Source of the DNA: Bacteroidota bacterium
Lineage (GTDB): Bacteria; Bacteroidota; Bacteroidia; Flavobacteriales_F; PHOS-HE28
Assembly (NCBI GenBank): GCA_963169595.1
Contig: CAUJFM010000145.1
Span: 1-41,553, forward strand
Direction of reading: 5' to 3'
Length of the DNA stretch: 41,553 nucleotides
Shown here: in pieces, positions 2,819-41,553 of the stretch
Position numbering within the stretch: position 1 is the first letter of the stretch
How the letters are laid out: each line of letters opens with the position of its first letter
Notes under the pieces: model-generated
What the model was told of the DNA's origin: nothing
The model's input: only the letters and a program-made list of their open reading frames with translations
Databases searched by the model: none
Translations under genes and position numbers: made by a program

Positions 2819-3847
<1,029 letters not shown>

Positions 3848-6183: not shown

Positions 6184-6807
6184 TTATTGGTCCTTGCTGG
6201 AGGTGCGCTGCGCCGCGGGAAGCAGGTAGGTGTAATGCAGACCGGCCACCACGTTCTGGCCGCGCAACACCGTGCTGAACGGAGTGATGCTGGTCTGGTA
6301 GCGCACCTCGAAGCGGCTGCGCGGGCGGTCCCAGCCGAAGCCCAGGCCCATGCTCACCTGCGAACGGTTCGTGGTCCCCTGCAGGGTGTAGCTGCTCTCG
6401 AACAGCACGTTGCCATCCTGCCGCACCACCTGCCGCCCGTTCATCCACCAGCCGGCCATGAGACCACCGGTCAGGAAGAAGCCTCCGGGCACCGTATCGG
6501 TGGAGATCTTGAACATCACGGGCAGTTCGAGGTATCCGAGACGCACGCTGGTGAAGGTGCGCAGTTGGGCGTTCTGCGTCAGGCTGCCCTTGGTGATGTA
6601 CATGGGTTCGATCAGGAAGGAGGCCTGGGCCGTCCAGGGCACTTCGATGCTCCATCCGAGGATGGGACCGGGCTTGGGCAGGCCGCTCCAATTGAACACG
6701 CCGCCGGCCGAGATGGTGGCCAGTGAAAGCCCGACCCGAGGGCCATGCTTCACCTGCGCCGAGGCCGATAGGCTCAGCGCCAGGAAAAGGGTGATGAGGG
6801 TGCGCAT
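6184..6807 (-). CDS. outer-membrane beta-barrel (porin-family / PorT-like) protein
   Basis: It has the signal peptide MRTLITLFLALSLSASAQ, alternating hydrophobic beta-strand patterns and an aromatic C-terminal region. The start is set at the ATG at 6807. Confidence 0.65.
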   Translation of the reverse strand: MRTLITLFLALSLSASAQVKHGPRVGLSLATISAGGVFNWSGLPKPGPILGWSIEVPWTAQASFLIEPMYITKGSLTQNAQLRTFTSVRLGYLELPVMFKISTDTVPGGFFLTGGLMAGWWMNGRQVVRQDGNVLFESSYTLQGTTNRSQVSMGLGFGWDRPRSRFEVRYQTSITPFSTVLRGQNVVAGLHYTYLLPAAQRTSSKDQ

Positions 6808-6861
6808 GGCCCCGAAGATCGGACGGCGGGGCCGAACCACCATCAGCCCGCTCCAACACGG

Positions 6862-7350
6862 TCAGTACCGGTCCTTCAGGGCGGCCATCTTCAGCGCGGC
6901 CACGGCGCAGTCCACGCCCTTGTTGCCATGCCTGCCACCACTGCGGTCGCGGGCCTGCTCCATCGTGTCATCCGTGAGCACGCCGAAGATCACGGGCTTG
7001 CTGAACTTGAGGCTCACGGCCATGATGCCTTGTGTGGTGCCTTGGCACACGAAATCGAAGTGGGGGGTCTCGCCCCGCACCACGCTGCCCAGGCAGATCA
7101 CCCCATCAAGCCCACCCGCTTCCAGCAGGAACTGCGCCCCGCTGGCCAGCTCGAAGCTGCCGGGCACCCATTCCTCCACGATGTCGGCCTCGGTCACGCC
7201 ATGGCGGAGCAAGGTCTCGCGTGCTCCACGCCGCAGGGCATCCGTGATCTCCAGGTTCCATTCGCTGATGACCAGCGCAAAACGACGACCAGCGCCACTG
7301 GGGACGCTGGTCGGGTCGTAGTGCGAAAGGTTGTGCGTGGCGGTCGCCAT
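6862..7350 (-). CDS. ribH: 6,7-dimethyl-8-ribityllumazine synthase
   Basis: 162-aa ORF with FALVISEWN, VPGSFELA, GVICLGSVVRGETPHFDFV and RSGGRHGNKG, which are canonical RibH motifs. Confidence 0.92.
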   Translation of the reverse strand: MATATHNLSHYDPTSVPSGAGRRFALVISEWNLEITDALRRGARETLLRHGVTEADIVEEWVPGSFELASGAQFLLEAGGLDGVICLGSVVRGETPHFDFVCQGTTQGIMAVSLKFSKPVIFGVLTDDTMEQARDRSGGRHGNKGVDCAVAALKMAALKDRY

Positions 7351-7362
7351 GGCACCCAGGGA

Positions 7363-8055
7363 CTATCCACCCATCGCTTCGGCGTGGCCGGCGTACTTCC
7401 GCGCCTGGCCGGCCTCGCTGCTGGTGGGGAACTCCTTGGCGATGCGGTTGAAGGCCTTGGCGGCCTCCTTCCATTGACCGGCCTGCTGATGCAGGATCCC
7501 CGCCTTCATCAGGTACATCGGGGTGGTGAAATCGTTCTTGGCCATGCCCGCCGCTTTCTCGAAGAGCTTCACGGCCTCGTCGTTACGGCCCAGTTCCACC
7601 AGCGCATCGCCCTGGTTGCCCACGGCCATCACGCGCAGCACATCATCACCCAGGTCGGCCTGCTTGTACTCGGCGATCGCCGCTTCGTACTCGCCCTTTT
7701 TCATGTAGATGGTGCCCAGGTAGTAATGGGCCAGGTTGGCGCTCGGGGTGCCGCTGTACTCGTCGGCCACGCTCAGGAAGCCGGGCCACTGGTCATCACC
7801 GTTCATGGCCTTGTCCAACGAGTCGATCTCGAAGTAGTACTCCGCCTTCCACATCAGTTCGCTGGCCTCTGCCGCCCGGGGCTTGGCGTAGCCATACTGA
7901 TAGGCGATCGCACCACCCACCACGGCCACCAGCGCCAGGGCACCGATGGTCAGGTTCTTCTTGTTCTTCTCGAGGAAAAGCTCGGTGCGGGTATACACCT
8001 CGCCAAGGTCCACATCGGGGCCCTGGGAGCTTGTGGGAGTATGCTTCTGGCTCAT
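7363..8055 (-). CDS. membrane-anchored tetratricopeptide-repeat protein (YfgM-like)
   Basis: 230-aa ORF with a single TM helix (LTIGALALVAVVGGAIAY) followed by TPR-like helical repeats. It sits in the ribH-recF intergenic position typical of Bacteroidota. Confidence 0.7.
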   Translation of the reverse strand: MSQKHTPTSSQGPDVDLGEVYTRTELFLEKNKKNLTIGALALVAVVGGAIAYQYGYAKPRAAEASELMWKAEYYFEIDSLDKAMNGDDQWPGFLSVADEYSGTPSANLAHYYLGTIYMKKGEYEAAIAEYKQADLGDDVLRVMAVGNQGDALVELGRNDEAVKLFEKAAGMAKNDFTTPMYLMKAGILHQQAGQWKEAAKAFNRIAKEFPTSSEAGQARKYAGHAEAMGG

Positions 8056-8122
8056 GGTCGCGTTCAGCGAGGCGCAAAAATAGGCTTTTGAGGGACTTGG
8101 CGAAGCCCCGGTCGCCGGAGGC

Positions 8123-8130
8123 TAACTTCG
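8123..8130 (+). promoter_or_regulatory. -7 promoter element (TAACTTCG) for recF
   Basis: It lies in a GGCTAACTTCGCGC context, 11 nt upstream of the ATG at 8142. Confidence 0.45.
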
Positions 8131-8141
8131 CGCTCCCGGCC

Positions 8142-9275
8142 ATGTCCTTCCACCTGTCCCACCTGCACCTGCTGCACTTCCGCAACCACCGGGAGGCTGA
8201 ATTGGAACTGGGGCCCGAGGTGAACTGCTTCGTGGGCCCCAACGGGGTGGGCAAGACCAACCTGTTGGATGCCGTGCATTACCTGGCCCTGGCCAAAAGC
8301 TATTTCGACGCGGTGGACATGCACAACATCCTCGATGGGGAGGAGTACTTCATGGTGCAGGGGGCTGTCCGCACCGACCAGGGCGATGACAACCTGCTGT
8401 GCACGGTGCGCAAGGGACAGCGCAAGGTGTTGAGCCGCAACCGCAAGGAGTACGACCGCCTGGCCGACCATGTGGGCCGCTATCCGGTGGTGATGATCAC
8501 CCCGTACGATGCCCAGTTGGTGCTGGAGGGCAGCGAGGTCCGCCGGCGCTTCCTGGACGGGCTCATTGCGCAGTTCGACAAGGCCTACCTGGAGGCCCTG
8601 ATCCGCTACAACCGGGCCCTGGCCCAGCGCAACACCCTGTTGAAACGGTTCGCGGAACAGGGGGGCGGCGCCCTGCAGATGCTGGAACCGTGGGATATGC
8701 AACTGGTGCAGTACGGCACGGCGGTGCATGAGGCGCGGCGGGCCTTCCTCGCGGACCTGGTCCCCTTGCTCACGGACCACTATGCCGGCATCAGCGGCCA
8801 GCGCGAGGCCGTGGGGCTGGAGTACCGATCGGCCTTGAACGAGACCCCGTTGGAGGCCTTGCTGAACGCTGCCTGGGAACGCGACCGTGCGGCCACCCAC
8901 ACCACGGTGGGGGTGCACAAGGACGATCTGGTCTTCACCATCAACGGGCAGCCGCTGAAGCGCTACGGTTCGCAGGGGCAGCAGAAGACCTTCCTCATCG
9001 CCCTGAAACTGGCCCAGTTCGACCTCACCCGTTCGCGCAGCGGCATCCGGCCCATCCTGCTGCTGGACGACATCTTCGACAAGATCGATCCGCAGCGCAT
9101 GCGGCACCTGCTCAAGCTCCTCAGCGGGCAGCGGTTCGGCCAGGTGCTCATCACCGATACGGATGCTGCGCGGCTGCACACCGCCCTCGATGGCCTGGCC
9201 CTTGATGTGCGCTTCTTCCACCTCGACCACGGACGCCCCATCGCCCTTGAAACGATCGAACGAACAGTCGCTTAA
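8142..9275 (+). CDS. recF: DNA replication and repair protein RecF
   Basis: Trimmed to the ATG at 8142 (MSFHLSHLHLLHFRNH). Walker A is GPNGVGKTNLLDA, the signature region is GSQGQQKTFLIALKLAQ, and Walker B is LLLDDIFDKID. A -7 box lies at 8123-8130. Confidence 0.92.
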   Translation: MSFHLSHLHLLHFRNHREAELELGPEVNCFVGPNGVGKTNLLDAVHYLALAKSYFDAVDMHNILDGEEYFMVQGAVRTDQGDDNLLCTVRKGQRKVLSRNRKEYDRLADHVGRYPVVMITPYDAQLVLEGSEVRRRFLDGLIAQFDKAYLEALIRYNRALAQRNTLLKRFAEQGGGALQMLEPWDMQLVQYGTAVHEARRAFLADLVPLLTDHYAGISGQREAVGLEYRSALNETPLEALLNAAWERDRAATHTTVGVHKDDLVFTINGQPLKRYGSQGQQKTFLIALKLAQFDLTRSRSGIRPILLLDDIFDKIDPQRMRHLLKLLSGQRFGQVLITDTDAARLHTALDGLALDVRFFHLDHGRPIALETIERTVA

Positions 9276-9596: not shown

Positions 9597-10970
9597 TTAT
9601 TGCATGTAGGTCACCTTGAACTCCACCCGGCGGTTCTTGGCACGGCCGGCCGGAGTGCTGTTGTCGGCCACGGGCTCCGTCTGCCCGAAGCCCTCGCTGC
9701 GCAGGCGGTCACCGCCCACTCCTTTCTTCACCAGGTACTCCCGCACGGCGGCCGCCCGGTCCTTGCTCAACTGCAGGTTCTTGTCGGCATTCCCCGTGTT
9801 GTCCGTGTGGCCGTGGATGTCCAGTTCATAGGAGGGGTTCTCCTGCATCACCTTCACCACATCGTTGAGGATGGGGAAGCTGGACGATTTGATCTTGGAA
9901 CTGCCGGTCTCGAACTGGATGCCGGTGAGGGCCTTCTCGAAGAGCTTCTTCGTCTCTTCCTTCAGTTCGGGACAGCCCCGCATGGAGGCCACACCGGCGA
10001 CCTTCGGGCAGCGGTCGTCCGGATCGATGATGCCATCACCGTCCGTATCGGGGCATCCGCTCTGGTTGGCGGGGCCGGCCGCGTCCTTGCAGCGGTCGTC
10101 CTTGTCGGCGATCCCATCACCGTCCGTGTCCGGGCACCCCTTTGTGGATGCCGGGCCGGCCTGGTCGGGGCAGCTGTCCTCCTTGTCCACGATGCCGTCC
10201 TTGTCGCGGTCATCCTCCGGCTTCAGGCGCACTTCCACGCCATCGATGTAGTAGTAGGCGCGCTGCTGGTCCCAGCCTTCCACCGCGTTCTCCTTCTTCA
10301 TGTCGGCCTCGGGGAAGGCGCCGATCACCACGAAGCGCTCCGTTCCGTCCGCCGTGAACACGCCGGTGACCGTGGTCCAGTTCTGGCGGTCGCGGACCAC
10401 CTCCTTGTGCACCACGTCGGGCATCTCCATGATGGGGCCGCAATGGCGCAGGGCCACTTCATTGGGGGCCATATAGGCTCCGATGCCGCTCACCGCACGG
10501 TCGCTGTTCCCGGCCAATTTCACCTGGAACTTCACCACGTACTTCTGCCCAGCCGTGAGGGGGGAGCCCAACGCGATCTGCAGGTATTCGGTGTACGGGT
10601 TCCAATCCGTCATGTCGTGCTTGTTCCACCACATCGGCTCGTTCAGGGCCTTGGGCCAAGTGGGGTGCTGCTCGTCCTTCCAAGCGACGAACCCGGCATA
10701 GGAGACCCCTTCGAACGCCTCGGTTGAGCCTTGGTCGTTCTGCGGGATGCCCACCGTGTTCGAGGCGGCACCTTTGCCGTAGACATCCACGGAGCCGAGG
10801 TTGGCGTTGCTCCAGCCGGTGGCGCGGTCTAGCTGGTCCCATGTGGTCACCGGTTCGGCGAGGGTTTCGAAGCCCCCGTTCTGGACCAGGTTGGGGTGCT
10901 GGTCCTGCGCGGTGACCACAGGGGCCAGGGCCCCTGTGGTCAGCAGCATGAGGAAATGGTTGTACTTCAT
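9597..10970 (-). CDS. OmpA-family outer membrane protein with thrombospondin type-3 (Ca-binding) repeats
   Basis: 457-aa ORF with a signal peptide and repeated D.DGDGI.D..D.CP motifs (DTDGDGIADKDDRC, DTDGDGIIDPDDRCP). The C-terminal OmpA-like domain includes IHGHTDNTGNADKNLQLSKDRAAAV and NRRVEF. Confidence 0.85.
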   Translation of the reverse strand: MKYNHFLMLLTTGALAPVVTAQDQHPNLVQNGGFETLAEPVTTWDQLDRATGWSNANLGSVDVYGKGAASNTVGIPQNDQGSTEAFEGVSYAGFVAWKDEQHPTWPKALNEPMWWNKHDMTDWNPYTEYLQIALGSPLTAGQKYVVKFQVKLAGNSDRAVSGIGAYMAPNEVALRHCGPIMEMPDVVHKEVVRDRQNWTTVTGVFTADGTERFVVIGAFPEADMKKENAVEGWDQQRAYYYIDGVEVRLKPEDDRDKDGIVDKEDSCPDQAGPASTKGCPDTDGDGIADKDDRCKDAAGPANQSGCPDTDGDGIIDPDDRCPKVAGVASMRGCPELKEETKKLFEKALTGIQFETGSSKIKSSSFPILNDVVKVMQENPSYELDIHGHTDNTGNADKNLQLSKDRAAAVREYLVKKGVGGDRLRSEGFGQTEPVADNSTPAGRAKNRRVEFKVTYMQ

Positions 10971-11250
10971 GTACCGTTCGTTTTGGTTTGGTTTGGTGAA
11001 CGTGAACGCTCGATCATGCGGTGCAACACCGATGAAGCACCACTGATCGAACTGAGATCAAGTTCGGAACTGGGTACAAGGTTAGTAAGGAATAGGCGGA
11101 GGAAGCTGATCTTCCTCATGGACGAGCCGGCCTCGTACGCTTTTGGCCGAGATCGCCGCACAGGGTGCGGACCCATCCGAGGGATGGATGCAAAGTGTCG
11201 GACGGGCCCGCGCAGGAGCGTCCCGTCAGATCACCGTGGGCGGTGGATGC

Positions 11251-11670
11251 TCAGAAGCGCTCGCGCCCGCTGAAGAAGAAGTTGCCTTCGATCTCCGCGT
11301 TCTCGTCGCTATCGCTACCGTGGCAGGCGTTCTTGGCCTTGCTCTCCGCGAAACGCTTGCGGATGGTGCCTTCCTCCGCTTGGGCGGGGTCGGTGGCGCC
11401 GATCAGCTTGCGGAAGTCCTCCACGGCGTTGTCCTTCTCCAGGATCGCGGCGATGATGGGACCGCTGGCCATGTAGCCGACCAGCTCACCGTAGAAGGGG
11501 CGCTCCTTGTGCACTTCGTAGAAGATGCCCGCCTCCTCGGCCGAGAGCCGGGTGTACTTCAGGGCGACGATCTTGAAGCCGTTGGAGATGATCATATCGA
11601 TGATCTTGCCAGTGTGCCCGGCGGCCACCGCCTCGGGCTTGATCATCGTAAAGGTCCTGTTTCCTGCCAT
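11251..11670 (-). CDS. ndk: nucleoside-diphosphate kinase
   Basis: Trimmed to the ATG at 11670. The sequence [15 protein letters not shown]...NACHGSDS contains the catalytic His motif, and 139 aa is the canonical length. The -7 box TACTTTTG lies at 11691-11698. Confidence 0.95.
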
Positions 11671-11690
11671 GGGTTGTTGAAAAAGCGGCG

Positions 11691-11698
11691 CAAAAGTA
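11691..11698 (-). promoter_or_regulatory. -7 promoter element (TACTTTTG) for ndk
   Basis: It is an exact TAnnTTTG match on the minus strand, 20 nt upstream of the ndk ATG. Confidence 0.5.
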
Positions 11699-11795
11699 AT
11701 CGGTGGGCGCCAAGCGGATGGGGTCCATGCAACATTCCTTCGTGGAGGCGGCGCGGCATCAACAGCTGTTCCCGTCCCCAACACTGGTTCGAACC

Positions 11796-12689
11796 ATGAA
11801 AAGGACCCTGCGACCAGCTCCCTTGATGCTGGCGTTCCTGCTGGCCGCCTGCGGCGGTGGCGAAGCCCCCAAGGAGCCCGAGAACACGCTGGTGATCGGC
11901 GGCGACGACGCCGGTGCAACGGCCACCAACCTGTACCAGATGCCCACCCCGAACGAACTGTTCGGCCTGGTGCGCGAGCTGGCGGGCGCGGGCCAGAAAC
12001 AGCTGCTGAGCCCGGCCTCCAACGCGGACAAGTATGTGAGCCGCAAGGCCCGGGCCATCAACTTCGGTGTGTACGCCACCGACCTGGTGTACGCCAGCAG
12101 TTTCAAGCTGAACGTGGAGGTGGCGCGCTACTACCTCACTTCCCGCAAGCTGGCCGAGTCCCTGGGCATCACCCAGGCCTTCTCCGATGCCGACTTCGTG
12201 CGGCTGGAGTCGAACCTCACCCGGGGCGATTCCCTGGAGGTGATCAGCAACGCGGCCTACATGCGGGCCTATGAGAAGCTGCAGGAGGAGGAGATGGGCC
12301 CGGTGCTGGTGCAGGTGCTGGCCGGCGGCTGGCTGGAGAGCATGCACCTGGTGATCCATCAGATCCAGGTGCTGGGCAGCAGCGATGCGCTGATGGCCCG
12401 CGTGGCCGAGCAGAAGGTGACCCTGGAGCACCTGATCAGCATGATGGACCCGCTCGCCGATGATGCGGACGTGGCCGCCGTGCGCGCCGAACTGCTGGCC
12501 CTGCGCGAGATCTATGACGCGGTGAACGTGAAGCGTGTTCCGCACGAGGGGCGCTCGGCTTCGGGCCGCATGGTCCTTGGTGATGACATCACCGTGGAGC
12601 TCACCGGCGAGAAGTTCCAGGAGCTCTCCCGGGCCGTGAAGCGCCTGCGCGACCAGTGGACCGCCCCCGAGAACCTTCCCAACGCCTGA
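11796..12689 (+). CDS. hypothetical lipoprotein
   Basis: It has the lipobox [19 protein letters not shown] and is otherwise alpha-helical, with no domain I recognise. The start is set at the ATG at 11796. Confidence 0.6.
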
Positions 12690-16979: not shown

Positions 16980-18410
16980 TCAGTGCACGCTCAGCTTCTT
17001 CTCGAGGTCCTCGAGGTAGCCGCGGAACTGCTTGTCCGTCTCGTGCAGGTTGTTCACGGTGCGGCAGGCGTGGAGCACGGTGGCGTGGTCCTTGCCACCG
17101 CAGTGCGCGCCGATGCTGGCCAGCGAGCTCTTCGTCATCTTCTTGGCGAAGTACATCGCGATCTGGCGGGCCTGCACCACCTCACGCTTGCGCGTCTTGC
17201 TCTTGAGCAGCTCGATCGGCAGGTTGAAGTAATCGCACACCACCTTCTGGATGTAGTCGATGCTCACCTCGCGCGCCGTGTTCTTCACGAACTTGTCGAT
17301 CATCTGCTTCGCGAGATCGAGCGTGACGGCCTTCTTGTTCAGCGAGCTCTGGGCGATGAGGCTGATCATCGCACCCTCGAGTTCACGGATGTTCGTGGTG
17401 ATGCTGTAGGCCAGGTATTCGACCACCTCCTTCGGCAGGTCGATGCCCTCGGCATACATCTTCTTCTCCAGGATGGCGATGCGTGTCTCCAGGCCCGGGG
17501 TCTGCAGGTCCGCGCTCAGGCCCCACTTGAAGCGGGAGAGGAGGCGCTGCTCCATGCCGGCCATCTCCACAGGTGCCTTGTCGCTGGTGATCACCAGCTG
17601 CTTGCCGTTCTGGTGCAGGTGGTTGAAGACATGGAAGAACACGTCCTGCGTCTTCTCCTTGCCGGCGAGGAACTGCACATCATCGATGATGAGCACGTCC
17701 ATCATCTGGTAGAACTGCGTGAAGTCGCCGACGGTGTTGTTCTTCACTGCCTCGATGAACTGCTGTGTGAACTTCTCGGCAGGTACGTAGAGGATGGTCT
17801 TGTCCGGGTGGTTGCGCTTGATCTCGATGCCGATGGCATGCGCGAGGTGCGTCTTGCCGAGGCCAACTCCACCATAGATCAGCAGCGGATTGAAGGCGGT
17901 GCCGCCGGGCTTCTGGGCCACGGCATAGCCGGCACTGCGGGCCAATCGGTTGCAGTCCCCTTCGATGAAGTTCTCGAAGGAATAGTTGGGGTTCAGGTGG
18001 CTCTCGACCTTGATCTTGCGCAGGCCGGGGATGATGAACGGGTTCTTGATGGGGCTGTTCGCCACATCGATCGGCAGTGACACCGCAGGGTTCTTGGTCT
18101 CACGCGCATTGCTCGTGGGCACCTTCACCGTGTACGGATTGGCGTTCTGGTAACCGTTCTCCATGATGATGGAGTACTCCAGCCGCCCGTCGGGTCCCAG
18201 CTCCTTGCGGATGATCTTCTTCAGCAGTCCGATGTAATGTTCTTCCAGCCATTCATAGAAGAACTGCGACGGTACCTGGATGGTGAGCACATGGTCCTGC
18301 AGCTTCAAGGCCTTGATCGGCTCGAACCAGGTCTTGAAGCTTTGCTGGCTGACGTTGTCCTTGATCACCTCGAGGCACCGCTCCCAGATCTTCTCGTGGT
18401 CCTTCTTCAT
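16980..18410 (-). CDS. dnaA: chromosomal replication initiator protein DnaA
   Basis: 476-aa ORF with Walker A GGVGLGKTHL, Walker B LIIDDVQF and the C-terminal DNA-binding helix GGKDHATVLHA. Confidence 0.97.
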   Translation of the reverse strand: MKKDHEKIWERCLEVIKDNVSQQSFKTWFEPIKALKLQDHVLTIQVPSQFFYEWLEEHYIGLLKKIIRKELGPDGRLEYSIIMENGYQNANPYTVKVPTSNARETKNPAVSLPIDVANSPIKNPFIIPGLRKIKVESHLNPNYSFENFIEGDCNRLARSAGYAVAQKPGGTAFNPLLIYGGVGLGKTHLAHAIGIEIKRNHPDKTILYVPAEKFTQQFIEAVKNNTVGDFTQFYQMMDVLIIDDVQFLAGKEKTQDVFFHVFNHLHQNGKQLVITSDKAPVEMAGMEQRLLSRFKWGLSADLQTPGLETRIAILEKKMYAEGIDLPKEVVEYLAYSITTNIRELEGAMISLIAQSSLNKKAVTLDLAKQMIDKFVKNTAREVSIDYIQKVVCDYFNLPIELLKSKTRKREVVQARQIAMYFAKKMTKSSLASIGAHCGGKDHATVLHACRTVNNLHETDKQFRGYLEDLEKKLSVH

Positions 18411-18787
18411 GGATGGGTCAGCGAGTTTGTGGGTTGGTGGTCGGTGGTTGGCTCCTTCTTCAGGGTGCCCTCGGAGGTGTCGAGGTGCCCTTCAGAAGGG
18501 AGGCAAATATGGATCGAAGAAAGTGAAAAAAAAACCGGAGGGATACTTGATGGGATGGAAAATTTTACTTGCCCGCGTTCCGTTGCGCATCCCTCTGAAG
18601 TCCTTGCCGGACGCGGCTTTTCGAAGATATGCCGTTGTTGCACAAGGTCTTGTGAGCGCCGTTCGTCACCTTCCGTCAACCTCGTTCGTGAGCACGTCAT
18701 CAACAATGTGAACGTTCGTCCACGGAACGTGACTGAAAGGTACGACAACAAGGGGGTGTTGACAACCTGGGGTGCACCGCCTTCGAT

Positions 18788-18795
18788 TACCTTGG
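18788..18795 (+). promoter_or_regulatory. -7-like element (TACCTTGG) for the thioesterase gene
   Basis: It lies in a GATTACCTTGGC context, 8 nt upstream of the ATG at 18804. Confidence 0.4.
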
Positions 18796-18803
18796 CATGC
18801 ACG

Positions 18804-19211
18804 ATGTTCCAGCACGAGACCACGCTCCGGGTGCGCTATGGGGAGACCGACCAGATGGGCTATGTCTACTATGGCGACTATGCCGAGTACCTGGAGGTGG
18901 GCCGTGTGGAAGCCTTGCGCAGCCTGGGTTTTCCATACCGGCGACTGGAGGAGGAAGGGGTGATGCTGCCGGTGCACGACCTGGCCGTGAAGTACCATCG
19001 GCCCGCGCGCTACGATGACCTGGTCACGGTGCGGGCCACCATCAACGCCCTGCCATCCGTGCGCATCGTGTTCACTTATGAACTGCGCGACGAGCGCGGC
19101 GAGCTGCTCACCGAAGCGTCCACCACCCTGGTGTTCGTGGACCGCGCCACGATGCGTCCGGCCCGCGCGCCGCAGGCCCTGCTCGAGGCCCTTCGTCCCT
19201 ACTTCGCCTGA
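18804..19211 (+). CDS. YbgC/4HBT-type acyl-CoA thioesterase
   Basis: Trimmed to the ATG at 18804. The sequence TLRVRYGETDQMGYVYYGDYAEYLEVGRVEALR is canonical for the 4HBT hotdog family. A -7-like box lies at 18788-18795. Confidence 0.85.
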   Translation: MFQHETTLRVRYGETDQMGYVYYGDYAEYLEVGRVEALRSLGFPYRRLEEEGVMLPVHDLAVKYHRPARYDDLVTVRATINALPSVRIVFTYELRDERGELLTEASTTLVFVDRATMRPARAPQALLEALRPYFA

Positions 19212-19810
19212 TCCTTCACGGCGGCCTCGATGCCTTGCAGCGCCCAGCGCTCCAGGGCTGTGGTGATGCGTCCGCGGGGCAGTTCCACCACCAGGTGGCA
19301 ACGATCACCATACGAGCCGTCCAGCACCAGGCCCTCCATCGCGGCCACATCACTGCGCAGCCGATCGAGCTGGGCGTAGGTGCAGTGGATGGACATCCGG
19401 GTCCGGGCCACTTCCTCGATGATCACCGCCTGCTCCAACGCGGCCTTCGCCGTATCGCCATAGGCCTGCACCAATCCGCCCTTGCCCAGCAGCGTTCCAC
19501 CGAAGTAGCGCACCACGATGACCGCCGTGTAGGTGAGGCCGCGCCCCTGGATGTGGCGCAGGATGGGCTTGCCGGCCGTGCCGGATGGTTCACCATCGTC
19601 CTGCGAACGATGCACCTGACCATCATCGCCGATCACATAGGCCCAGCACCAATGCCGCGCCGTGTGATGCTCCTTCTTCACGCTCAGCAGCCGCTGCTTG
19701 AAGCTCTCCTCATCCCGCACATGGAACGCGATGCCGATGAAGCGGCTCGCCTTCTCACGCAATTGTGCGGTGCCTTCGTGCTGGATGGTGAAGTGGTGGT
19801 CGGCGCTCAT
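19199..19810 (-). CDS. YigZ/IMPACT-family protein
   Basis: Trimmed to the ATG at 19810. The sequence has EKASRFIGIAFHV, ARHWCWAY, DDGEPSGTAGKPIL and VVRYFGGTLLGKGGL, which are IMPACT N-terminal domain motifs. Confidence 0.85.
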   Translation of the reverse strand: MSADHHFTIQHEGTAQLREKASRFIGIAFHVRDEESFKQRLLSVKKEHHTARHWCWAYVIGDDGQVHRSQDDGEPSGTAGKPILRHIQGRGLTYTAVIVVRYFGGTLLGKGGLVQAYGDTAKAALEQAVIIEEVARTRMSIHCTYAQLDRLRSDVAAMEGLVLDGSYGDRCHLVVELPRGRITTALERWALQGIEAAVKDQAK

Positions 19811-26807: not shown

Positions 26808-26818
26808 GCCCTCTCATG

Positions 26819-26857
26819 TGGCTGGAAATTCGCCACGCCATGGCGAATTTCCAGCCA
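26819..26857. repeat. perfect palindrome copy A: TGGCTGGAAATTCGCCA-cgcca-TGGCGAATTTCCAGCCA
   Basis: It has 17-bp perfectly complementary arms and a 5-nt loop. It lies 12 nt after the dapA stop and 1 nt before the ATPase stop. No T-tract follows on either strand. Confidence 0.95.
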
Positions 26858-26858
26858 T

Positions 26859-28094
26859 CTACCACTCCCACAAGGCGCTCAACGGCACCGCGTGGATGTC
26901 CTTGTCGAAAGGTGTGATGCCCAGGCCCGGGTGCAGCAGGATGCCGCGCAGCCACTTGTCGCCCGCCACTTCCCGCAGGTGCTTCAGCCCGGCCACATCG
27001 TTGCTGCCAACGGCCATGGCGGCCTTCACCTCGATGCCCACGATGCGGCCCTTGTTGTCCTCCAGCACGATGTCCACCTCACGGCCCGCCTCGGTGCGGA
27101 AGTGGTAGGCCTTCACCCGCGCTTTGCTCCACCCGGCCAGCTTCCGCAGCTCGTTCAGCACGAAGGTCTCCAGCAACGGCCCGAAGGACGGGCTTTGGAG
27201 GATGTCCGCCGGCTTGTCGATGCCCGCCAGATGCGCCGCGAAGCCGCTGTCGGCCAGGTGCAGTTTGGGGGCCTTCACCAGCCGCTTGCCCCGGTGCGCG
27301 TGCCAGGCCTCCACAGGTGTGCTCAGGAAGGTGGCCTCCAGCAGGGCCATGTACCGCCGCATGGTGCTGTGGGGGATGTCCAGCGTCCGTGACAGGTCCG
27401 CCAGGTTCAACAGACCACTGCTCCGCACCGCCAGCGCCTGCAACAGCCGGGGCAGATCGGTGAGCCCGGTGATATTGCTGATATCCCGTACGTCCCGTTG
27501 CAGGATGCTCGTAATGTAGGCGCCGTACCACGCGCCCCTGCGCGCCGGGTCCTTGCGGGTCATCACCTCCGGGTAGCCACCGGCGATCACCCGTGCGGCG
27601 ATCTGCTTGCGCTCCAAGGCCGTGGGGTCCGTCATCTTCGGCCTGGCCGCGAAGACCTGGTCGATGAAGGTGCTCTTCCGGCCCGCCAGTTCATCCTGTG
27701 CGAAGGGGTACAGGGGGAGTATCTCCATCCGTCCGGCCAGGGAGTCGCCCAGCCGGGGCAGCACCAGCACGTTGGCGCTGCCCGTGAGCAGGAACCGCCC
27801 CGGTCTCCGGTCACGGTCCACTGCGGCCTTGATGGCCCGGAAGATGTTGGGCGCGTTCTGCACCTCGTCGATCACCGCCAGCCTGCCCAGCCCCTGGATG
27901 AAGGCGGGCGGGTCGTTCAGCGCGGCCTCCAGGGTGGGGTGGTCATCCAGCGTCACGTAACGGGCGCCCCGCTCCCGCGCGATGGCCTTCACCAGTGTGG
28001 TCTTGCCGGTCTGCCGCGCGCCGTGCAGCAGCACCACGGGGGTGTCCTTCAGCGCGATATCCACGGCATGTCTCAGGTTCCTGGACCGTTCCAT
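26859..28094 (-). CDS. AAA-family ATPase with winged-helix region and C-terminal DUF4143 (PD-(D/E)xK-like) domain
   Basis: Trimmed to the ATG at 28094 (MERSRNL...). Walker A is HGARQTGKTT and Walker B is LAVIDEVQ. The C-terminus has a restriction-endonuclease-like motif, REVDIVLED...IVGIEVK. The -7 box TATCTTCG lies at 28099-28106. Identical palindromes flank the gene. Confidence 0.85.
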   Translation of the reverse strand: MERSRNLRHAVDIALKDTPVVLLHGARQTGKTTLVKAIARERGARYVTLDDHPTLEAALNDPPAFIQGLGRLAVIDEVQNAPNIFRAIKAAVDRDRRPGRFLLTGSANVLVLPRLGDSLAGRMEILPLYPFAQDELAGRKSTFIDQVFAARPKMTDPTALERKQIAARVIAGGYPEVMTRKDPARRGAWYGAYITSILQRDVRDISNITGLTDLPRLLQALAVRSSGLLNLADLSRTLDIPHSTMRRYMALLEATFLSTPVEAWHAHRGKRLVKAPKLHLADSGFAAHLAGIDKPADILQSPSFGPLLETFVLNELRKLAGWSKARVKAYHFRTEAGREVDIVLEDNKGRIVGIEVKAAMAVGSNDVAGLKHLREVAGDKWLRGILLHPGLGITPFDKDIHAVPLSALWEW

Positions 28095-28098
28095 GTTA

Positions 28099-28106
28099 CG
28101 AAGATA
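28099..28106 (-). promoter_or_regulatory. -7-like element (TATCTTCG) for the DUF4143 ATPase gene
   Basis: On the minus strand it reads GCTATCTTCGTAAC-ATG, 4 nt upstream of the ATG at 28094. It lies between palindrome B and the gene. Confidence 0.45.
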
Positions 28107-28136
28107 GCTTTGGACGTATGGATATTGGTCATGAAG

Positions 28137-28175
28137 TGGCTGGAAATTCGCCACATCATGGCGAATTTCCAGCCA
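28137..28175. repeat. perfect palindrome copy B: TGGCTGGAAATTCGCCA-catca-TGGCGAATTTCCAGCCA
   Basis: Its arms are identical (34/34 nt) to copy A and only the loop differs. It shares the upstream flank TCATG..GTGGC. It lies 43 nt upstream of the ATPase start, inside a divergent promoter region. Confidence 0.95.
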
Positions 28176-28227
28176 CGTGTTCCGGGCCTGCTCCTGGAAG
28201 GTGTGTCCGGGAAGCGCCACGGCATGC

Positions 28228-37751: not shown

Positions 37752-38723
37752 TTGAGCGAGAAGCTGATCACCATCACCGGTGTCGATCCGGTAGCGGTCC
37801 TGGGGGCCAACGACGCCCACCTGCGCCTCATCAAGCCCCTGTTCCCGAAGCTGAACCTCATTGCCCGGGGCGATACGCTCAAGGTCTCCGGGGCCGAGGC
37901 GGACATCGCCCTCTTCGAGGAGCGCTTCAACGAACTGGTGGCCCACGTGGCGCGCTACAACGAACTGCCCCGCAAGGTGCTGGACGACATCATGGGCAGC
38001 GGCGAGGCCCCGCGCAGCGAGTCCGGTGAGGACGCCGACGTGCTGGTCTACGGCAACGCCGGGCTGCGCGTGAAGGCCCGCACCCTCAACCAGCAGAAGC
38101 TGGTGAAGGCGGTGGAGGGCAGCGACATGGTCTTCGCCATCGGACCGGCCGGCACCGGCAAGACCTACACCGCCGTAGCCCTTGCGGTGAAGGCGCTGAA
38201 GGAACGGAAGGTGCGCCGCATCATCCTCACCCGCCCGGCCGTGGAGGCGGGGGAGAACCTCGGCTTCCTGCCCGGCGACCTGCGCGAGAAGCTCGATCCC
38301 TACCTGCAGCCGCTCTACGATGCGCTCAAGGAGATGATCCCCGCCTCGCGCCTGGCCGACCACCTCGACGAGGGCATCATCCAGATCGCGCCGCTCGCCT
38401 TCATGCGTGGCCGCACGCTCGATCACGCCTTCGTGATCCTCGACGAGGCCCAGAACGCCACGCTGCCGCAGCTCAAGATGTTCCTCACCCGCATGGGCCG
38501 CAACGCCAAGTTCGTCATCACCGGCGACGTCACCCAGGTGGACCTGCCCGACCGCCAGCCCAGTGGCCTGATGCCCGCCGTGGCCATGCTCCGCCACATC
38601 GAAGGCATCAACGTCATCGAGCTCGACGAGAAGGACGTCATCCGCCATGAGCTGGTGACCCGCGTGCTCGGCGCGTTCAAGGAACTGGAGCAGAAGACCG
38701 ACAAGAAGGACCGCCCCCAATGA
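37752..38723 (+). CDS. phoH: PhoH-family ATPase
   Basis: It has Walker A GPAGTGKTY, LTRPAVEAGE.LGFLPGD, Walker B FVILDEAQN and ITGDVTQVDLP. The start is a TTG at 37752, because no in-frame ATG is available. Confidence 0.9.
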   Translation: MSEKLITITGVDPVAVLGANDAHLRLIKPLFPKLNLIARGDTLKVSGAEADIALFEERFNELVAHVARYNELPRKVLDDIMGSGEAPRSESGEDADVLVYGNAGLRVKARTLNQQKLVKAVEGSDMVFAIGPAGTGKTYTAVALAVKALKERKVRRIILTRPAVEAGENLGFLPGDLREKLDPYLQPLYDALKEMIPASRLADHLDEGIIQIAPLAFMRGRTLDHAFVILDEAQNATLPQLKMFLTRMGRNAKFVITGDVTQVDLPDRQPSGLMPAVAMLRHIEGINVIELDEKDVIRHELVTRVLGAFKELEQKTDKKDRPQ

Positions 38724-39676
38724 CCACCGCACACCCCGGGACACTGATGCGTTCCGACCTCCAGCACCCGCTCATCACCAACGTCTACCGCGGCAAGGTG
38801 CGCGATGTGTACACCCTGTCCGACGGCCGCATCATCCTGGTGGCCAGCGACCGCATCAGCGCCTTCGATGTGGTGCTGCCGCGCGGCATCCCCCACAAGG
38901 GCCAGGTGCTCAGCCAGCTCAGCTGGCACATGCTCGGCCTTACGCGCCAGGTGGCGCCCAACTGGGCCGAGGCCTCGCCCGACCCCAACGTGGTCATCGG
39001 GGCCGCCTGCAGCACGGTGAAGGTGGAGATGGTGGTGCGCGGCTACCTCGCCGGCCACGCCTGGCGCACCTACCAGGCCGGTGGGCGCACGCTGTGCGGG
39101 GCCGCCCTGCCCGAGGGGATGAAGGAGAACGACCGCTTCCCCACACCCCTCATCACGCCCAGCACCAAGGCCGATGTGGGGCACGATGAGGACATCACCC
39201 CCGACGAGATCCTGGCGCGCGGCCTCTGCACGCCGCAGGAGTGGGACACCATGCAGCGCTACGCCCTGGCGCTCTTCGCCGAGGGCAGCCGCATCGCCGC
39301 CGAGCGCGGCCTGCTGCTGGTGGACACCAAGTACGAGTTCGGACGCACCCCCGATGGCCGCATCCTGCTCATCGACGAGGTGCATACGCCCGACAGTTCC
39401 CGCTACTTCTACGCCGACGGCTATGCCGAACGCCAGGCCAGCGGCGAGCGCCAGAAGCAGCTCAGCAAGGAGTTCGTGCGCGAATGGCTCATCGCCGGCG
39501 GCTTCATGGGCAAGGAGGGCCAGCAGGTGCCCCCCATGGACGATGCCTTCGTGCAGAGCGTCACCGAGCGCTACGTGGAGCTCTACGAGCGCATCACCGG
39601 CCAAGCTTTCCACCCCGCACCCACGGAGGACATCAACGTGCGGATCCAGCAGGCGCTGGAAGCTTACCTCGGCTGA
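38720..39676 (+). CDS. purC: phosphoribosylaminoimidazole-succinocarboxamide synthase (SAICAR synthetase)
   Basis: 318-aa ORF with YRGKVRDVY, DRISAFD, EMVVRGYLAG, PSTKA, LLLVDTKYEFG and DEVHTPDSSR. There is an ATGA overlap with phoH. Confidence 0.95.
   Translation: MTTAHPGTLMRSDLQHPLITNVYRGKVRDVYTLSDGRIILVASDRISAFDVVLPRGIPHKGQVLSQLSWHMLGLTRQVAPNWAEASPDPNVVIGAACSTVKVEMVVRGYLAGHAWRTYQAGGRTLCGAALPEGMKENDRFPTPLITPSTKADVGHDEDITPDEILARGLCTPQEWDTMQRYALALFAEGSRIAAERGLLLVDTKYEFGRTPDGRILLIDEVHTPDSSRYFYADGYAERQASGERQKQLSKEFVREWLIAGGFMGKEGQQVPPMDDAFVQSVTERYVELYERITGQAFHPAPTEDINVRIQQALEAYLG
39566..39622 (+). repeat. direct repeat, left copy (inside intact purC 3' end)
   Basis: This 57-nt segment is 53/57 identical to 40382-40438. 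Confidence 0.9.
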
Positions 39677-39684
39677 GGTGCGCT

Positions 39685-39692
39685 TAACTTTG
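39685..39692 (+). promoter_or_regulatory. -7 promoter element (TAACTTTG) for the DUF4160/DUF2442 module
   Basis: It is an exact TAnnTTTG match, 10 nt upstream of the ATG at 39703 and 8 nt after the purC stop. Confidence 0.5.
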
Positions 39693-39702
39693 AGGCAGGC
39701 GT

Positions 39703-39954
39703 ATGGCACCCAAGGCGATCAAACCGGACATTGAGGGCTATGCGTTCTACTTCTGGAGTGAGGAGGGCGCAGAGCCACCGCATGTGCATGTGAACAAGGG
39801 CGATGGGCATGCCAAATGGTGGCTGCTGCCGGAACCTGTGGAGGTCTATTCCTACGGGTTCAAGAAACAGGAGAGGAAACGGATCCACGAGTTGATCAAC
39901 ACGCACCATGGAACGATCATCAAAGCCTGGAACGCGCACTTCAAGCGCCAGTGA
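39703..39954 (+). CDS. DUF4160 domain protein
   Basis: 83-aa ORF. The sequence F.F.SEEGAEPPHVHV.KGDGHAKWWL is the DUF4160 signature. A perfect -7 box TAACTTTG lies at 39685-39692. G+C is lower than in the neighbours. Confidence 0.8.
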   Translation: MAPKAIKPDIEGYAFYFWSEEGAEPPHVHVNKGDGHAKWWLLPEPVEVYSYGFKKQERKRIHELINTHHGTIIKAWNAHFKRQ

Positions 39955-39988
39955 CCTTCGATCACCGGATCCATTGGACCGCTTGATC

Positions 39989-40303
39989 ATGGAGAAGGGC
40001 TTGCGGATCACGGAGGTGGCGGTGGCCAATCATGCCGTTGTCCTGCGGCTCAACAACGGATCGGTGTTCGCAGAACCATTGGATGGCATCCATGCACTGA
40101 GCGATGCCACTCCCAAGCAATTGCAGCAGTGTGAGGTATTTGCCGGTGGGGTGGGCATCGCCTGGCCCAAGCTCGATGTCCACTTGTCCTTGAAAGGCTT
40201 CCTCACGAACATGGTCCGCAACGAGCTCATCCGGCGCCTGACGGTCGAACCCAAGCCTGGAGCACGTGGCCACGGAAAGGTGCGTCGTGGGGTTGAGGCC
40301 TGA
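39989..40303 (+). CDS. DUF2442 domain protein
   Basis: Trimmed to the ATG at 39989 (MEKGLRITEV...). The pattern L.L.NG......L......L..AT..QL...E....G.GI.WP.LD.DLS fits DUF2442, and it has the usual pairing with DUF4160. Confidence 0.75.
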   Translation: MEKGLRITEVAVANHAVVLRLNNGSVFAEPLDGIHALSDATPKQLQQCEVFAGGVGIAWPKLDVHLSLKGFLTNMVRNELIRRLTVEPKPGARGHGKVRRGVEA

Positions 40304-40356
40304 GCAGGGAATGAACTCCCACCCGGTGCGTTCCGCGCATCGTAGAATGAATACAG

Positions 40357-40490
40357 AAAGGCTTCCTTGGTCCACAGCGCCGAACGCTACGTGGAGCTCT
40401 TTGAGCGCATCACCGGCCAAGCTCTCCACCCCGCACCCCGAGGATAGCAATGCCCGCATGCATCGGGCGGTATCAGAGTACTTGGGGTAG
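40357..40490 (+). pseudogene. decayed duplicate of the purC 3' end (frameshifted remnant)
   Basis: Positions 40382-40438 match purC 39566-39622 at 53 of 57 nt. The tail encodes EDSNARMHRAVSEYLG* against purC EDINVRIQQALEAYLG*. The spacing to the stop differs by 2 nt, so the two halves are out of frame. No upstream purC body is present. Confidence 0.75.
40382..40438 (+). repeat. direct repeat, right copy (inside purC 3' remnant)
   Basis: This 57-nt segment is 53/57 identical to 39566-39622. Confidence 0.9.
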
Positions 40491-40563
40491 GCGGGGCGCG
40501 TGTTCCCTAAATGCGGTGGTCATTCGGTGTTGACCGATGTTGCGCGGCTTTGCGCGTAATGGC

Positions 40564-40694
40564 GGTCAACGGTTACGCATATGGCCAGTGGCGGTTTGCG
40601 GGCTGCATACCTGTCCGCCAGCACAGAAGCTGATGCGGGCTACAAAGCTTCAAATACCCACTTCCCCCGCCATTGGCTATATGCGATGTTAGCG
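40564..40694 (-). repeat. attC-like imperfect palindrome immediately 3' of the lnu-type gene
   Basis: The 19-nt arms CGCATATGGCCAGTGGCGG (40576-40594) and CCGCCATTGGCTATATGCG (40667-40685) pair with 17 Watson-Crick and 2 G-T pairs across a 72-nt spacer. Read on the minus strand, the outer boxes are CGCTAAC (like R'' RYYYAAC) and GTTGACC (like R' GTTRRRY). Each deviates from consensus, so the call is tentative. Confidence 0.4.
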
Positions 40695-40702
40695 GTAGTT
40701 TT

Positions 40703-41473
40703 TTATTCAATTCTTTTTAATATTTCTTTGAGTTTTAGTCCAACATTTAGTTTGTCAAACAGCTTTTCAGATATTTTCAATGAATTTTGAAAGGCTGTAT
40801 TTATGTTTTTAGGGTTTAAATCAGATGTTGTAAGTATAAATTCTGAATACCAATCTTGGTCAATATCTTTTTCCAAACTTTTCGTCGGGCTTTCCCAATG
40901 TTGAGTTTTATTTGTTACTGTTCTGATGAGCCAAAGTAAGTATTTTTGAACAGTCGTCAAGCTTTGGTGGGCGTGGGCAAATTCTTCTCTTTTGATTAAA
41001 TTGTTCGTTGTCAGCAAAACATTCAGTAATGATTGGCTTAGCCACAAAATATTTTCGTCTGTGGTTCTATCAGGGAATTTTACTTTGATTTGATTTAGCG
41101 TTTCCGTTAAAAGTCCGTCTTTGTCAATTAAATTCATTTGGTCAAAATCACTGAACGCAACAATTCCTTCCCACGATTTAATGATTTTTATTTCGTCTGT
41201 TTTTAAAAAATGAAATTCGCCTCTAATCATATTCTCAAAAATAGCGACTTCACTTCCGTATTCATTAATGAAATATAAAGCGACAGGATAAACTTGGTTT
41301 ACCCATTCTTCAGCCGAAAAGTTTTCTTTGGTTTTTAGAAAGATGTAAAATTCGATGTCAGAATATTTGTCGCCTTCATTTTTAGTAAATGAACCGTACA
41401 TAAAAACTGCGGAAACATTTTCGTCTTGTTGAGCTATTGATTTGGTTTTGTTAATCATTTGTAACTGTGTCAT
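40703..41473 (-). CDS. Lnu(B)/Lnu(F)-type lincosamide nucleotidyltransferase family protein
   Basis: 256-aa ORF. MYGSFTKNEGDKYSDIEFYIFL (the nucleotidyltransferase GS...D.E motif), IRGEFHF and the helical C-terminal half (YLLWLIR...QHW) match my recollection of Lnu(B)/Lnu(F)-like proteins. The gene is about 30% G+C in a roughly 65% G+C context. Confidence 0.78.
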   Translation of the reverse strand: MTQLQMINKTKSIAQQDENVSAVFMYGSFTKNEGDKYSDIEFYIFLKTKENFSAEEWVNQVYPVALYFINEYGSEVAIFENMIRGEFHFLKTDEIKIIKSWEGIVAFSDFDQMNLIDKDGLLTETLNQIKVKFPDRTTDENILWLSQSLLNVLLTTNNLIKREEFAHAHQSLTTVQKYLLWLIRTVTNKTQHWESPTKSLEKDIDQDWYSEFILTTSDLNPKNINTAFQNSLKISEKLFDKLNVGLKLKEILKRIE

Positions 41474-41553
41474 TGTTGTAAATTTTAAATTGTTGATAAA
41501 TACAAATCATCATAACTTTTGAGAGTAATGATTTATTTCTGTTTTTATTTTTA

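Follow-up and report, generated by a model that had tools for sequence, protein, structure and literature searches.

A putative DhiTA-type toxin-antitoxin cassette at the purC 3' end of a Flavobacteriales chromosome: probable integrase-less insertion with displacement of the native gene end

Background

How does a two-gene module without an integrase come to lie between an intact housekeeping gene and a second, broken copy of that gene's 3' end? The question is raised by contig CAUJFM010000145.1, a stretch of 41,553 nt (referred to throughout as the window) from the core chromosome of a high-G+C (~65%) Flavobacteriales bacterium, in which dnaA, dnaN, ligA, a recF-like gene, dapA, ribH, phoH and purC are present. 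The housekeeping gene is purC, which encodes SAICAR synthetase, and the module consists of a DUF4160 gene followed by a DUF2442 gene. An earlier reading of the sequence alone had taken the arrangement to be the footprint of an element that integrated into the 3' end of purC, supplied a replacement end and left the displaced original to decay, the element being either a mini-island mobilised in trans or the residue of something larger. The locus is compared here with its relatives, which were found by scanning genome and metagenome collections with PurC; 160 purC loci were examined and 179 loci were fetched in total, all of the relatives compared being metagenome contigs, several of them short.

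The duplicated 3' end of purC

The target gene, the two copies of its end and the right-hand chromosomal side of the locus have the following coordinates in the window.

38720-39676, + strand: purC (SAICAR synthetase), intact, 318 aa, the target gene; Pfam SAICAR_synt at 234.5 bits and NCBIfam PRK12607 at 447 bits (cut-off 371).
39546-39676, + strand: left, in-gene copy of the repeat, with its high-identity core at 39564-39622; it has the clade majority state at all copy-differing positions up to 39622.
39623-39676, + strand: replacement purC tail (…TEDINVRIQQALEAYLG*), very probably imported with the cassette; it is off the clade majority at 11 of 54 positions, as against 0 of 77 upstream.
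40365-40490, + strand: remnant, very probably the displaced native 3' end of purC, 5'-truncated and frameshifted, with deletions of 3 nt and 2 nt and its core at 40380-40438; it adjoins the native downstream flank, like the purC tail in the empty site of the relative L081.
40495-40572, + strand: native flank downstream of the insertion, containing an 18-bp hairpin (40529-40570) and marking the chromosomal side on the right; conserved in relatives L001, L161, L081 and L084.

A repeat search returned a single family of direct repeats in the region, 39564-39622 and 40380-40438, which are 59 nt long, 816 nt apart and identical at 55 of 59 positions (93%); the 57-nt purC core that had been seen to recur with 53 of 57 matches sits inside it. 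The 53-nt core pattern has exactly two occurrences in the window and none in 100 shuffles. By local alignment homology extends to 39546-39683 against 40365-40499, giving a repeat length of ~130 nt (purC 39546-39676 against 40365-40490) and not 57. The alignment has two gaps, one of 3 nt upstream of the core and one of 2 nt just after it, and it is the latter that throws the second copy out of frame, as the sequence-only reading had concluded: in the frame of the core the second copy hits a stop (HPAPRG*), and the shifted frame encodes EDSNARMHRAVSEYLG*, a diverged but homologous tail with a stop codon of its own at 40488-40490. Identity is very uneven along the repeat when calculated over stretches of 18-59 nt: the core reaches 92%, whereas the part before it has 67% and the tail 59% (Fisher p = 6e-5 for the difference between core and tail). 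Homology ends at 40365, and there is, again as previously described, no purC body in front of the remnant.

An uninterrupted site, for which a search of related purC 3' regions had been proposed, is found in L081 (PurC 94% identical), which has neither DUF4160 nor DUF2442 and in which the purC stop codon is ~50 nt before a conserved block of ~75 nt (L081 6006-6083, equivalent to 40495-40572 in the window). This block follows the remnant in the window and the purC tail in L081, and the remnant therefore occupies the position of the native purC tail. The insertion reading thus withstands the objection that the relatives might all carry the duplication. The same order as in the window (purC, DUF4160, DUF2442, remnant, block) is found in L001 (PurC 91%) and L161 (93%). 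In L172 and L173 (PurC 91%) a DUF4160/DUF2442 pair also follows purC but is of a different subtype (53% / ~40% protein identity to that of the window), although the leader and first ~85 nt of the cassette are, on a rough count from the sequences, ~90% identical to those of the window; the remnant in L172 is apparent as repeats at 152-234 and 928-1010 (83 nt, 94%). The site is thus occupied in four genomes besides that of the window, making five genomes with three diverged cassette alleles. The spacer between purC and the block has yet another content in L084 (PurC 96% identical over the part present), where a hotdog thioesterase gene is found and there is no remnant, and it therefore has different occupants in different strains. 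L084 is the closest purC relative, and its gene (749-1231, - strand, encoding a 160-aa acyl-CoA thioesterase-like protein) is not associated with a repeat. Both the cassette and the block are absent from the more distant relatives L082, L083, L002, L003 and L004.

Which of the two copies is native had been proposed as a matter of similarity to orthologous purC ends. Plain identity proved ambiguous, the remnant having decayed, and each copy-against-copy difference was instead polarised with clade and outgroup states in aligned purC tails. Over the upstream part and core (77 nt) there are 11 differing sites, and the clade majority agrees with the in-gene copy at all 11 and with the remnant at none. 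In the last 54 nt there are 22 differing sites, and here the clade majority agrees with the in-gene copy at 10 and with the remnant at 11. The in-gene tail thus has 11 departures from the clade majority, with the outgroup state at six of them, and the remnant tail has the clade state at those same 11 sites together with 10 private changes and the 2-nt deletion. Whether the relative is close or distant, the in-gene tail has 67-76% identity to it, in contrast to the purC body, which is 93.8% identical to that of L081 and 78% to that of L003. It is because of these polarised tail differences that the in-gene tail is considered to be imported and the remnant to be the displaced native tail; to this extent the earlier proposal of a supplied replacement end and a decaying original is supported. 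The most diverged part of the remnant is its upstream 18 nt, with six differences and the 3-nt deletion. The two copies are therefore reciprocal mosaics, the in-gene copy being made up of host sequence, core and imported tail and the remnant of a diverged arm, core and native decaying tail. A single reciprocal crossover in the core would be expected to yield this product; plain duplication followed by uniform decay would not. Insertion of the module without an integrase of its own, bringing an imported purC tail and displacing the native one, is considered highly probable.

The copies in L001, L161 and L172 are of a different character, in that both are clade-type and they are 92-95% identical from about 'AACGCATCACC' to the stop, a pattern that fits donors belonging to the clade as well as conversion of one copy by the other. 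The remnant also starts at points ~40 nt apart, the equivalent of 39546 in the window and of ~39586 in L001, L161 and L172, whilst the left junction is constant.

The DUF4160/DUF2442 cassette

Between the two copies lie only a promoter box and two small genes, as had been reported from the sequence.

39685-39692, + strand: TAACTTTG box, 8 nt past the purC stop, matching the Bacteroidetes sigma-A -7 element TAnnTTTG; predicted promoter box and left edge of the cassette.
39703-39954, + strand: dhiT-like putative toxin gene, DUF4160, 83 aa; Pfam PF13711 at 59.3 bits (cut-off 23), covering profile positions 1-65 of 65.
39908-40303, + strand: dhiA-like putative antitoxin gene, DUF2442; Pfam PF10387 at 42.7 bits (cut-off 23.9), starting at ATG 39908 or ATG 39989.
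40304-40364, + strand: right-hand spacer of the cassette, ending …GAAAGG where the remnant begins; the junction motif GGAAAGG is also found in L001 and L161.

The sequence TAnnTTTG is the -7 consensus of the Bacteroidetes sigma-A factor and is retained in L001, L161, L162, L164, L168, L172 and L174. Homology to cassettes in contexts other than purC starts at 39684. The G+C content of the interval (0.55-0.61) is below that of purC (0.66-0.73), in agreement with the earlier impression. Were dhiA to start at ATG 39908 it would overlap dhiT by 47 nt; L001 and L168 lack a start codon at the position of 39989 but retain the peptide DPLDRLI, encoded ahead of it. The toxin contains an HVHV motif.

In Dickeya dadantii a DUF4160 protein inhibits growth, a DUF2442 protein neutralises it and the complex of the two represses the promoter, the DhiTA pair being a type II system with the toxin gene first (PMC8198452), and a survey published in 2025 indicated that a DUF2442 protein follows most DUF4160 proteins (PMC12065111). 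The window cassette has the same order, toxin first, with the two genes on the same strand and in adjacent or overlapping frames, as in DhiTA of D. dadantii 3937. The resemblance is a distant one, with 23.2 bits against the NCBIfam toxin_DhiT model NF048015 (cut-off 100), making the window toxin a distant member of the family and not an equivalog; in addition, the host here belongs to the Bacteroidota and the Dickeya locus was not reported with gene-end repeats (PMC8198452). Judged by its domains and gene order the pair is assigned to the DhiTA toxin-antitoxin family; it probably acts as an addiction or defence module transcribed from its own promoter, possibly with additional read-through from purC. 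At 5768-5800 of L161 the toxin gene has lost its ATG and has a 1-nt deletion near the start, so that the open reading frame called begins at an upstream TTG and has a different N-terminus; this toxin may be degenerating.

The history of the cassette differs from that of the sequences on either side of it. Nucleotide identity between the window and L161 is 91.6% for the purC body, 91.5% for phoH and 92.3% for the remnant and block, but only 77.8% for the cassette. A single ancient insertion that was then inherited vertically is thus insufficient as the whole story, the cassette being far more diverged than its flanks and a 53%-identical subtype occupying the same site. This divergence and the second subtype in L172 and L173 imply that cassettes have been acquired or exchanged at purC more than once.

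The same architecture at other genes

Related cassettes were found at the ends of two further genes. In L167-L169 two copies of the asnS 3' end enclose a cassette with a 77%-identical toxin. The asnS repeats of L168 (312-387 and 1131-1206) are 76 nt long and 93% identical, continuing for 26 nt beyond, and the fragment corresponds to positions 376-451 of 451 in the NCBIfam asparagine-tRNA ligase model. The upstream asnS piece in L168 comprises only the last 76 codons and comes after the end of another gene, which suggests an array. In L174-L177 the second cassette subtype is found at the end of an MmeI-family restriction-modification gene, in the order MmeI (tail copy 0, 2150-2273), DUF559 endonuclease gene, tail copy 1 (2848-2974), DhiTA, tail copy 2 (3641-3757). 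Copy 0 shares 90% identity with copy 1 and 80% with copy 2, and the locus is thus a tandem array of tails and cassettes that includes a DUF559 cassette. In three loci, those of the window, L172 and L174, exactly 26 nt separate the stop codon of the tail from the ATG of the toxin, and the -7 box comes 8 nt past the stop. The same minimal content, a promoter box and two genes with a repeat spacing of ~750-820 nt, recurs at purC in five genomes, at asnS and at MmeI.

Two other contexts are less clear. A cassette 71% identical to that of the window in L162, beside HNH and PLD genes, has no flanking repeat of at least 16 nt. The cassette in L164 (58% identical) is flanked by arrays resembling repetitive extragenic palindromes (REP) next to Y1 transposase genes, and there is a possible MmeI-tail remnant. 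The REP-like arrays are 119 nt long and lie on both sides of the cassette, near two Y1 transposase genes of the RAYT-like kind; the palindromic units are CGGGACGCCTGTGCGAC and its complement. A leucyl-tRNA synthetase gene with an inserted DUF559 domain is found nearby, and these features of L164 together take in 5757-5904, 6780-6929, 6921-8173 and 10716-12249.

Displacement of gene ends is familiar from the polymorphic toxin loci rhs and cdiA, in which C-terminal displacement ('orphan') arrays are formed. There too a unit consisting of a gene 3' end and a small downstream gene recombines into the conserved part of a gene, displacing the previous 3' end downstream, and repetition of the process builds arrays, with which L174 may be compared. 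The difference is that the end swapped in rhs and cdiA is the toxin domain and is itself the selected cargo, whereas at purC it is the tail of a housekeeping gene, the cargo forming an operon of two genes apart from it under a predicted promoter of its own.

Searches for mobility functions

No integrase, transposase or recombinase was detected by Pfam among 40 open reading frames across the 41.5-kb window, which extends to its surroundings the earlier statement that the interval lacks an integrase; only core-chromosome genes are present, amongst them dnaA, dnaN, ligA, the recF-like gene (SMC_N/AAA), dapA, ribH, phoH and a MoxR/VWA system. There was likewise no recombinase in the flanks of the related loci. 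A tRNA or tmRNA gene as target was rejected, there being none in the window. The region 39540-40500 had no blastn match in plasmids or phages, the DhiT protein had no match in viral contigs, and Rfam models gave only chance-level matches on 39600-41553, none of them on the repeat or the block. The 3' end of an integron cassette carries attC, with imperfect inverted repeats of the form RYYYAAC … GTTRRRY; no inverted repeat or attC-like site is present in 40304-40364, and the idea that dhiTA is an integron cassette was rejected.

How the cassette may have entered

The following course of events would account for the locus. The incoming DNA very probably carried its own version of about the last 130 nt of purC, followed by the promoter box 8 nt past the stop and the two genes. 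Recombination in the ~60-nt conserved core very probably joined the purC body of the host to the imported tail, keeping purC intact, and the tail of the host was left downstream of the cassette, 5'-truncated and beside its native flank, decaying by two small deletions, a frameshift and private substitutions. The exchange is envisaged as a single reciprocal (Campbell-type) crossover between the chromosomal end of purC and a small looped-out or circular molecule composed of a purC 3' fragment and dhiTA, most likely through the general homologous recombination of the cell and not through an integrase dedicated to the purpose. Loop-out across the direct repeats would then be possible, producing empty sites and circles able to re-enter naive relatives, as would gene conversion between the copies and exchange of cassette alleles, and the same process at other conserved genes would generate the asnS and MmeI arrangements and the tandem tail-cassette arrays. 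Homologous recombination is favoured because site-specific integration at three targets would call for three enzymes, because the repeats do not have constant boundaries and because the targets have no motif in common. As the mechanism of insertion it is nevertheless proposed tentatively, its probability being put at somewhat below even, and the explanation taken as a whole, with insertion, mechanism and function together, is thought only slightly likelier to be right than wrong.

A number of considerations weigh against this account. The 160 purC loci contained no donor of the divergent tail of the window, and searches of plasmid, phage and viral collections brought to light neither a circular nor an attP-like form of the element. 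The clade-type copies of L001, L161 and L172, if taken alone, would equally fit target duplication or recent gene conversion. Synonymous divergence (pS) between the window and L161 is greater in the cassette (0.63-0.76 for dhiA, 0.48 for dhiT) than in purC and phoH (0.23-0.38), but the contrast is inflated by the stronger codon bias of the latter (GC3, the G+C content at third codon positions, of 0.92 as against 0.75). The recombinase search reached as far as the window and the flanks of related loci, and a recombinase acting in trans from elsewhere in the genome is possible. Finally, homologous recombination explains the spread of a cassette among genomes that share the target, but not the first capture of the tail of a new gene.

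Islands, integrative and conjugative elements and integrative and mobilisable elements enter the 3' ends of protein or tRNA genes and supply a replacement end, and the cis-mobilisable elements (CIMEs) of streptococci are integrase-less derivatives of these. Such integrase-less elements and insertion with long target duplication are the nearest known parallels to the locus. The two purC copies might accordingly be the attL and attR sites of a CIME-like mini-island on which a tyrosine or serine recombinase acts in trans, a reading that is considered unlikely. The architecture is that of islands at gene 3' ends, with direct repeats, attL in the intact gene end and attR as a truncated copy, empty sites in relatives, a gene end brought by the element and a reciprocal mosaic around a ~59-nt core, and the lack of recombination genes is shared with the CIMEs; the GGAAAGG junction between cassette and remnant in three genomes and the constant 26-nt spacing between stop and ATG point in the same direction. 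Set against this, no recombinase was found in the window or in the flanks of related loci, the element is only ~0.7 kb, and the same cargo is present at purC, asnS and MmeI, which are unrelated and would require three specificities. The repeats, moreover, range from 75 to 135 nt with no motif common to the different targets, and the remnant boundary shifts between the window and L001, L161 and L172. Of the earlier suggestion of a mini-island mobilised in trans, the small integrase-less unit is what is found, but integrase-driven movement was not borne out, the three unrelated targets and variable boundaries being a better fit to homology-driven recombination.

Insertion with long target duplication is the second possibility of this kind and is, at a similar level, improbable. 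It was reportedly described for restriction-modification gene complexes by Nobusato et al. (2000). The criteria of Furuta, Abe and Kobayashi (2010) are an insert of less than 20 kb without mobility genes and direct repeats of more than 30 bp that align to one copy in a relative, and Furuta and colleagues proposed for restriction-modification units a life cycle of loop-out, re-entry, gene conversion and swapping (PMC2853133). With repeats of ~130 nt, an insert of ~0.7 kb and the empty site in L081, the window locus agrees with these criteria, but its cargo does not consist of restriction-modification genes and its repeats are mosaic. In both cases there is a small addiction-type unit without a mobility gene, the direct repeats (30-400 bp) exceed the target duplications of transposons and align to a single copy in a relative, and they sometimes overlap the 3' end of a neighbouring gene. 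There are also differences: what is carried here is a toxin-antitoxin pair, joined in L174 by a DUF559 endonuclease gene, a conserved gene is in every case completed by the left copy, diverged alleles reuse the site and tandem arrays occur. Because the cargo is DUF4160/DUF2442, the likeness lies in how the process works and is not one of membership.

True duplication of the target would mean that the cassette entered just past the purC stop, that ~130 nt were duplicated through staggered breaks or template switching and that the odd in-gene tail came later by a separate recombination. This agrees with the copies in L161, L172 and L168, which are 92-94% identical over their full length and host-type, and with the duplication of different target genes at different loci, as expected of a repeat derived from the target, and the phenomenon is documented for addiction modules without mobility genes (PMC2853133). 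The copies in the window, however, are reciprocal mosaics with an imported gene tail, not plain duplicates that have diverged uniformly, and two diverged subtypes whose left junctions at purC coincide and whose remnant boundaries nearly do are not what independent random duplications would be expected to produce. Furthermore, we know of no mechanism that gives staggered duplications of 75-135 nt.

A more speculative variant of the tail-carrying insertion, and an improbable one, is that such integrase-less cassettes (DhiTA, DUF559) have a dedicated means of movement, for example a product of their own, such as the DUF4160 toxin with its HVHV motif, that breaks DNA at conserved gene ends and provokes homing-like repair. 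One-sided repair would then copy the gene tail and cassette from an occupied allele, the broken tail of the recipient becoming the remnant. If true, this would be a new mechanism of toxin-antitoxin mobility and would explain why the 3' ends of essential genes, at which loss is poorly tolerated, serve as docking points.

The other earlier suggestion, that the interval is what is left of a larger integrase-bearing island after internal deletion down to the toxin-antitoxin pair, is very unlikely. Toxin-antitoxin pairs are common stabilising cargo of islands and the G+C content of the interval is lower than that of the host, but the same minimal two-gene content is present in the five purC-site genomes, with three alleles, as well as at asnS and MmeI, which would call for improbable parallel deletions, and neither the 179 fetched loci nor the plasmid, phage and viral collections contained a larger version. 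Lastly, the readings of the second copy as the 3' end of a truncated purC paralogue and of the repeat as a product of chance or of faulty assembly can be dismissed as extremely improbable. The contig is of metagenome type, and 1 kb further on it ends in foreign-looking DNA of 30% G+C, but four independent assemblies from other samples show the same arrangement, shuffled sequence never yielded the repeat, there is no second purC body in the window, and synteny with the empty site of L081 rules out the paralogue by placing the remnant in the native tail position beside the native downstream flank.

The downstream flank and other features of the window

The hairpin block to the right of the remnant has a DNA folding energy of -15.4 kcal/mol (z = -4.8), with compensatory changes at two pairs across five genomes. 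It has no match in Rfam, synteny is lost beyond it, and it could serve as a terminator of purC or as a site of recombination. The start of the block, TGCGGTGGTCATT (40511-40523), is the exact reverse complement of AATGACCACCGCA (38719-38731) in the start region of purC. In L001 the 12th base has changed on both sides (…CCGCC / GGCGG…), in L161 the match also holds, and in L081 it is reduced to ~10 nt. This may represent pairing between the 3' untranslated region and the start codon, or chance.

At ~40690 the G+C content of the window drops from ~0.6 to 0.30, and 40703-41473 (- strand) encodes an Lnu(H)-like lincosamide nucleotidyltransferase (NCBIfam 496 bits, cut-off 540; 81% nucleotide identity to lnu(H) of Empedobacter plasmids). 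The stretch directly 3' of this gene, 40566-40696, is built like an integron attC site (GGTCAAC … long imperfect inverted repeat … GTTAGCG) and is 73% identical to the sequence just 3' of blaVEB-1/5 in IncC and other plasmids, the place of the attC of that cassette. The end of the contig looks like an integron-type resistance cassette, a chimeric assembly being an alternative. An attC-like site starting from the end of the block is also found in L081 (6075-6205, ending GTTAGCG) and L084 (1420-1515, GTTAGGT; DNA fold z = -4.8), where it is followed by different genes of lower G+C content, and a chromosomal cassette array varying between strains may have its distal end just to the right of the block.

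Elsewhere in the window two copies (95%) of a 40-nt perfect palindrome of the type GTGGCTGGAAATTCGCCAC…GTGGCGAATTTCCAGCCA, at 26818-26857 and 28136-28175, bracket an AAA_14/DUF4143 ATPase gene (26859-28220, - strand) between dapA and an RNase T-like exonuclease gene; this may be another small inserted unit. The dnaA gene is at 16980-18410 (- strand), and in the region 16980-19300 there is a dip in G+C content to 0.57 (18001-19000). The window probably includes or adjoins the replication origin.

Conclusions

The movement of toxin-antitoxin modules outside plasmids, phages and transposons is largely unexplained, and this locus provides a natural series with which it can be tested, consisting of an empty site, five occupied sites with three alleles, the same architecture at two other genes and one tandem array. 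The series shows cassettes without an integrase entering the 3' ends of conserved genes together with a spare gene end, and it links toxin-antitoxin modules both to the 'long target duplication' puzzle of restriction-modification systems and to C-terminal displacement arrays. For annotation, short out-of-frame ends of housekeeping genes can be read as insertion footprints that mark hot spots of strain-level variation. Recurrence at purC, asnS and MmeI points to a recurrent route of movement for such selfish modules.

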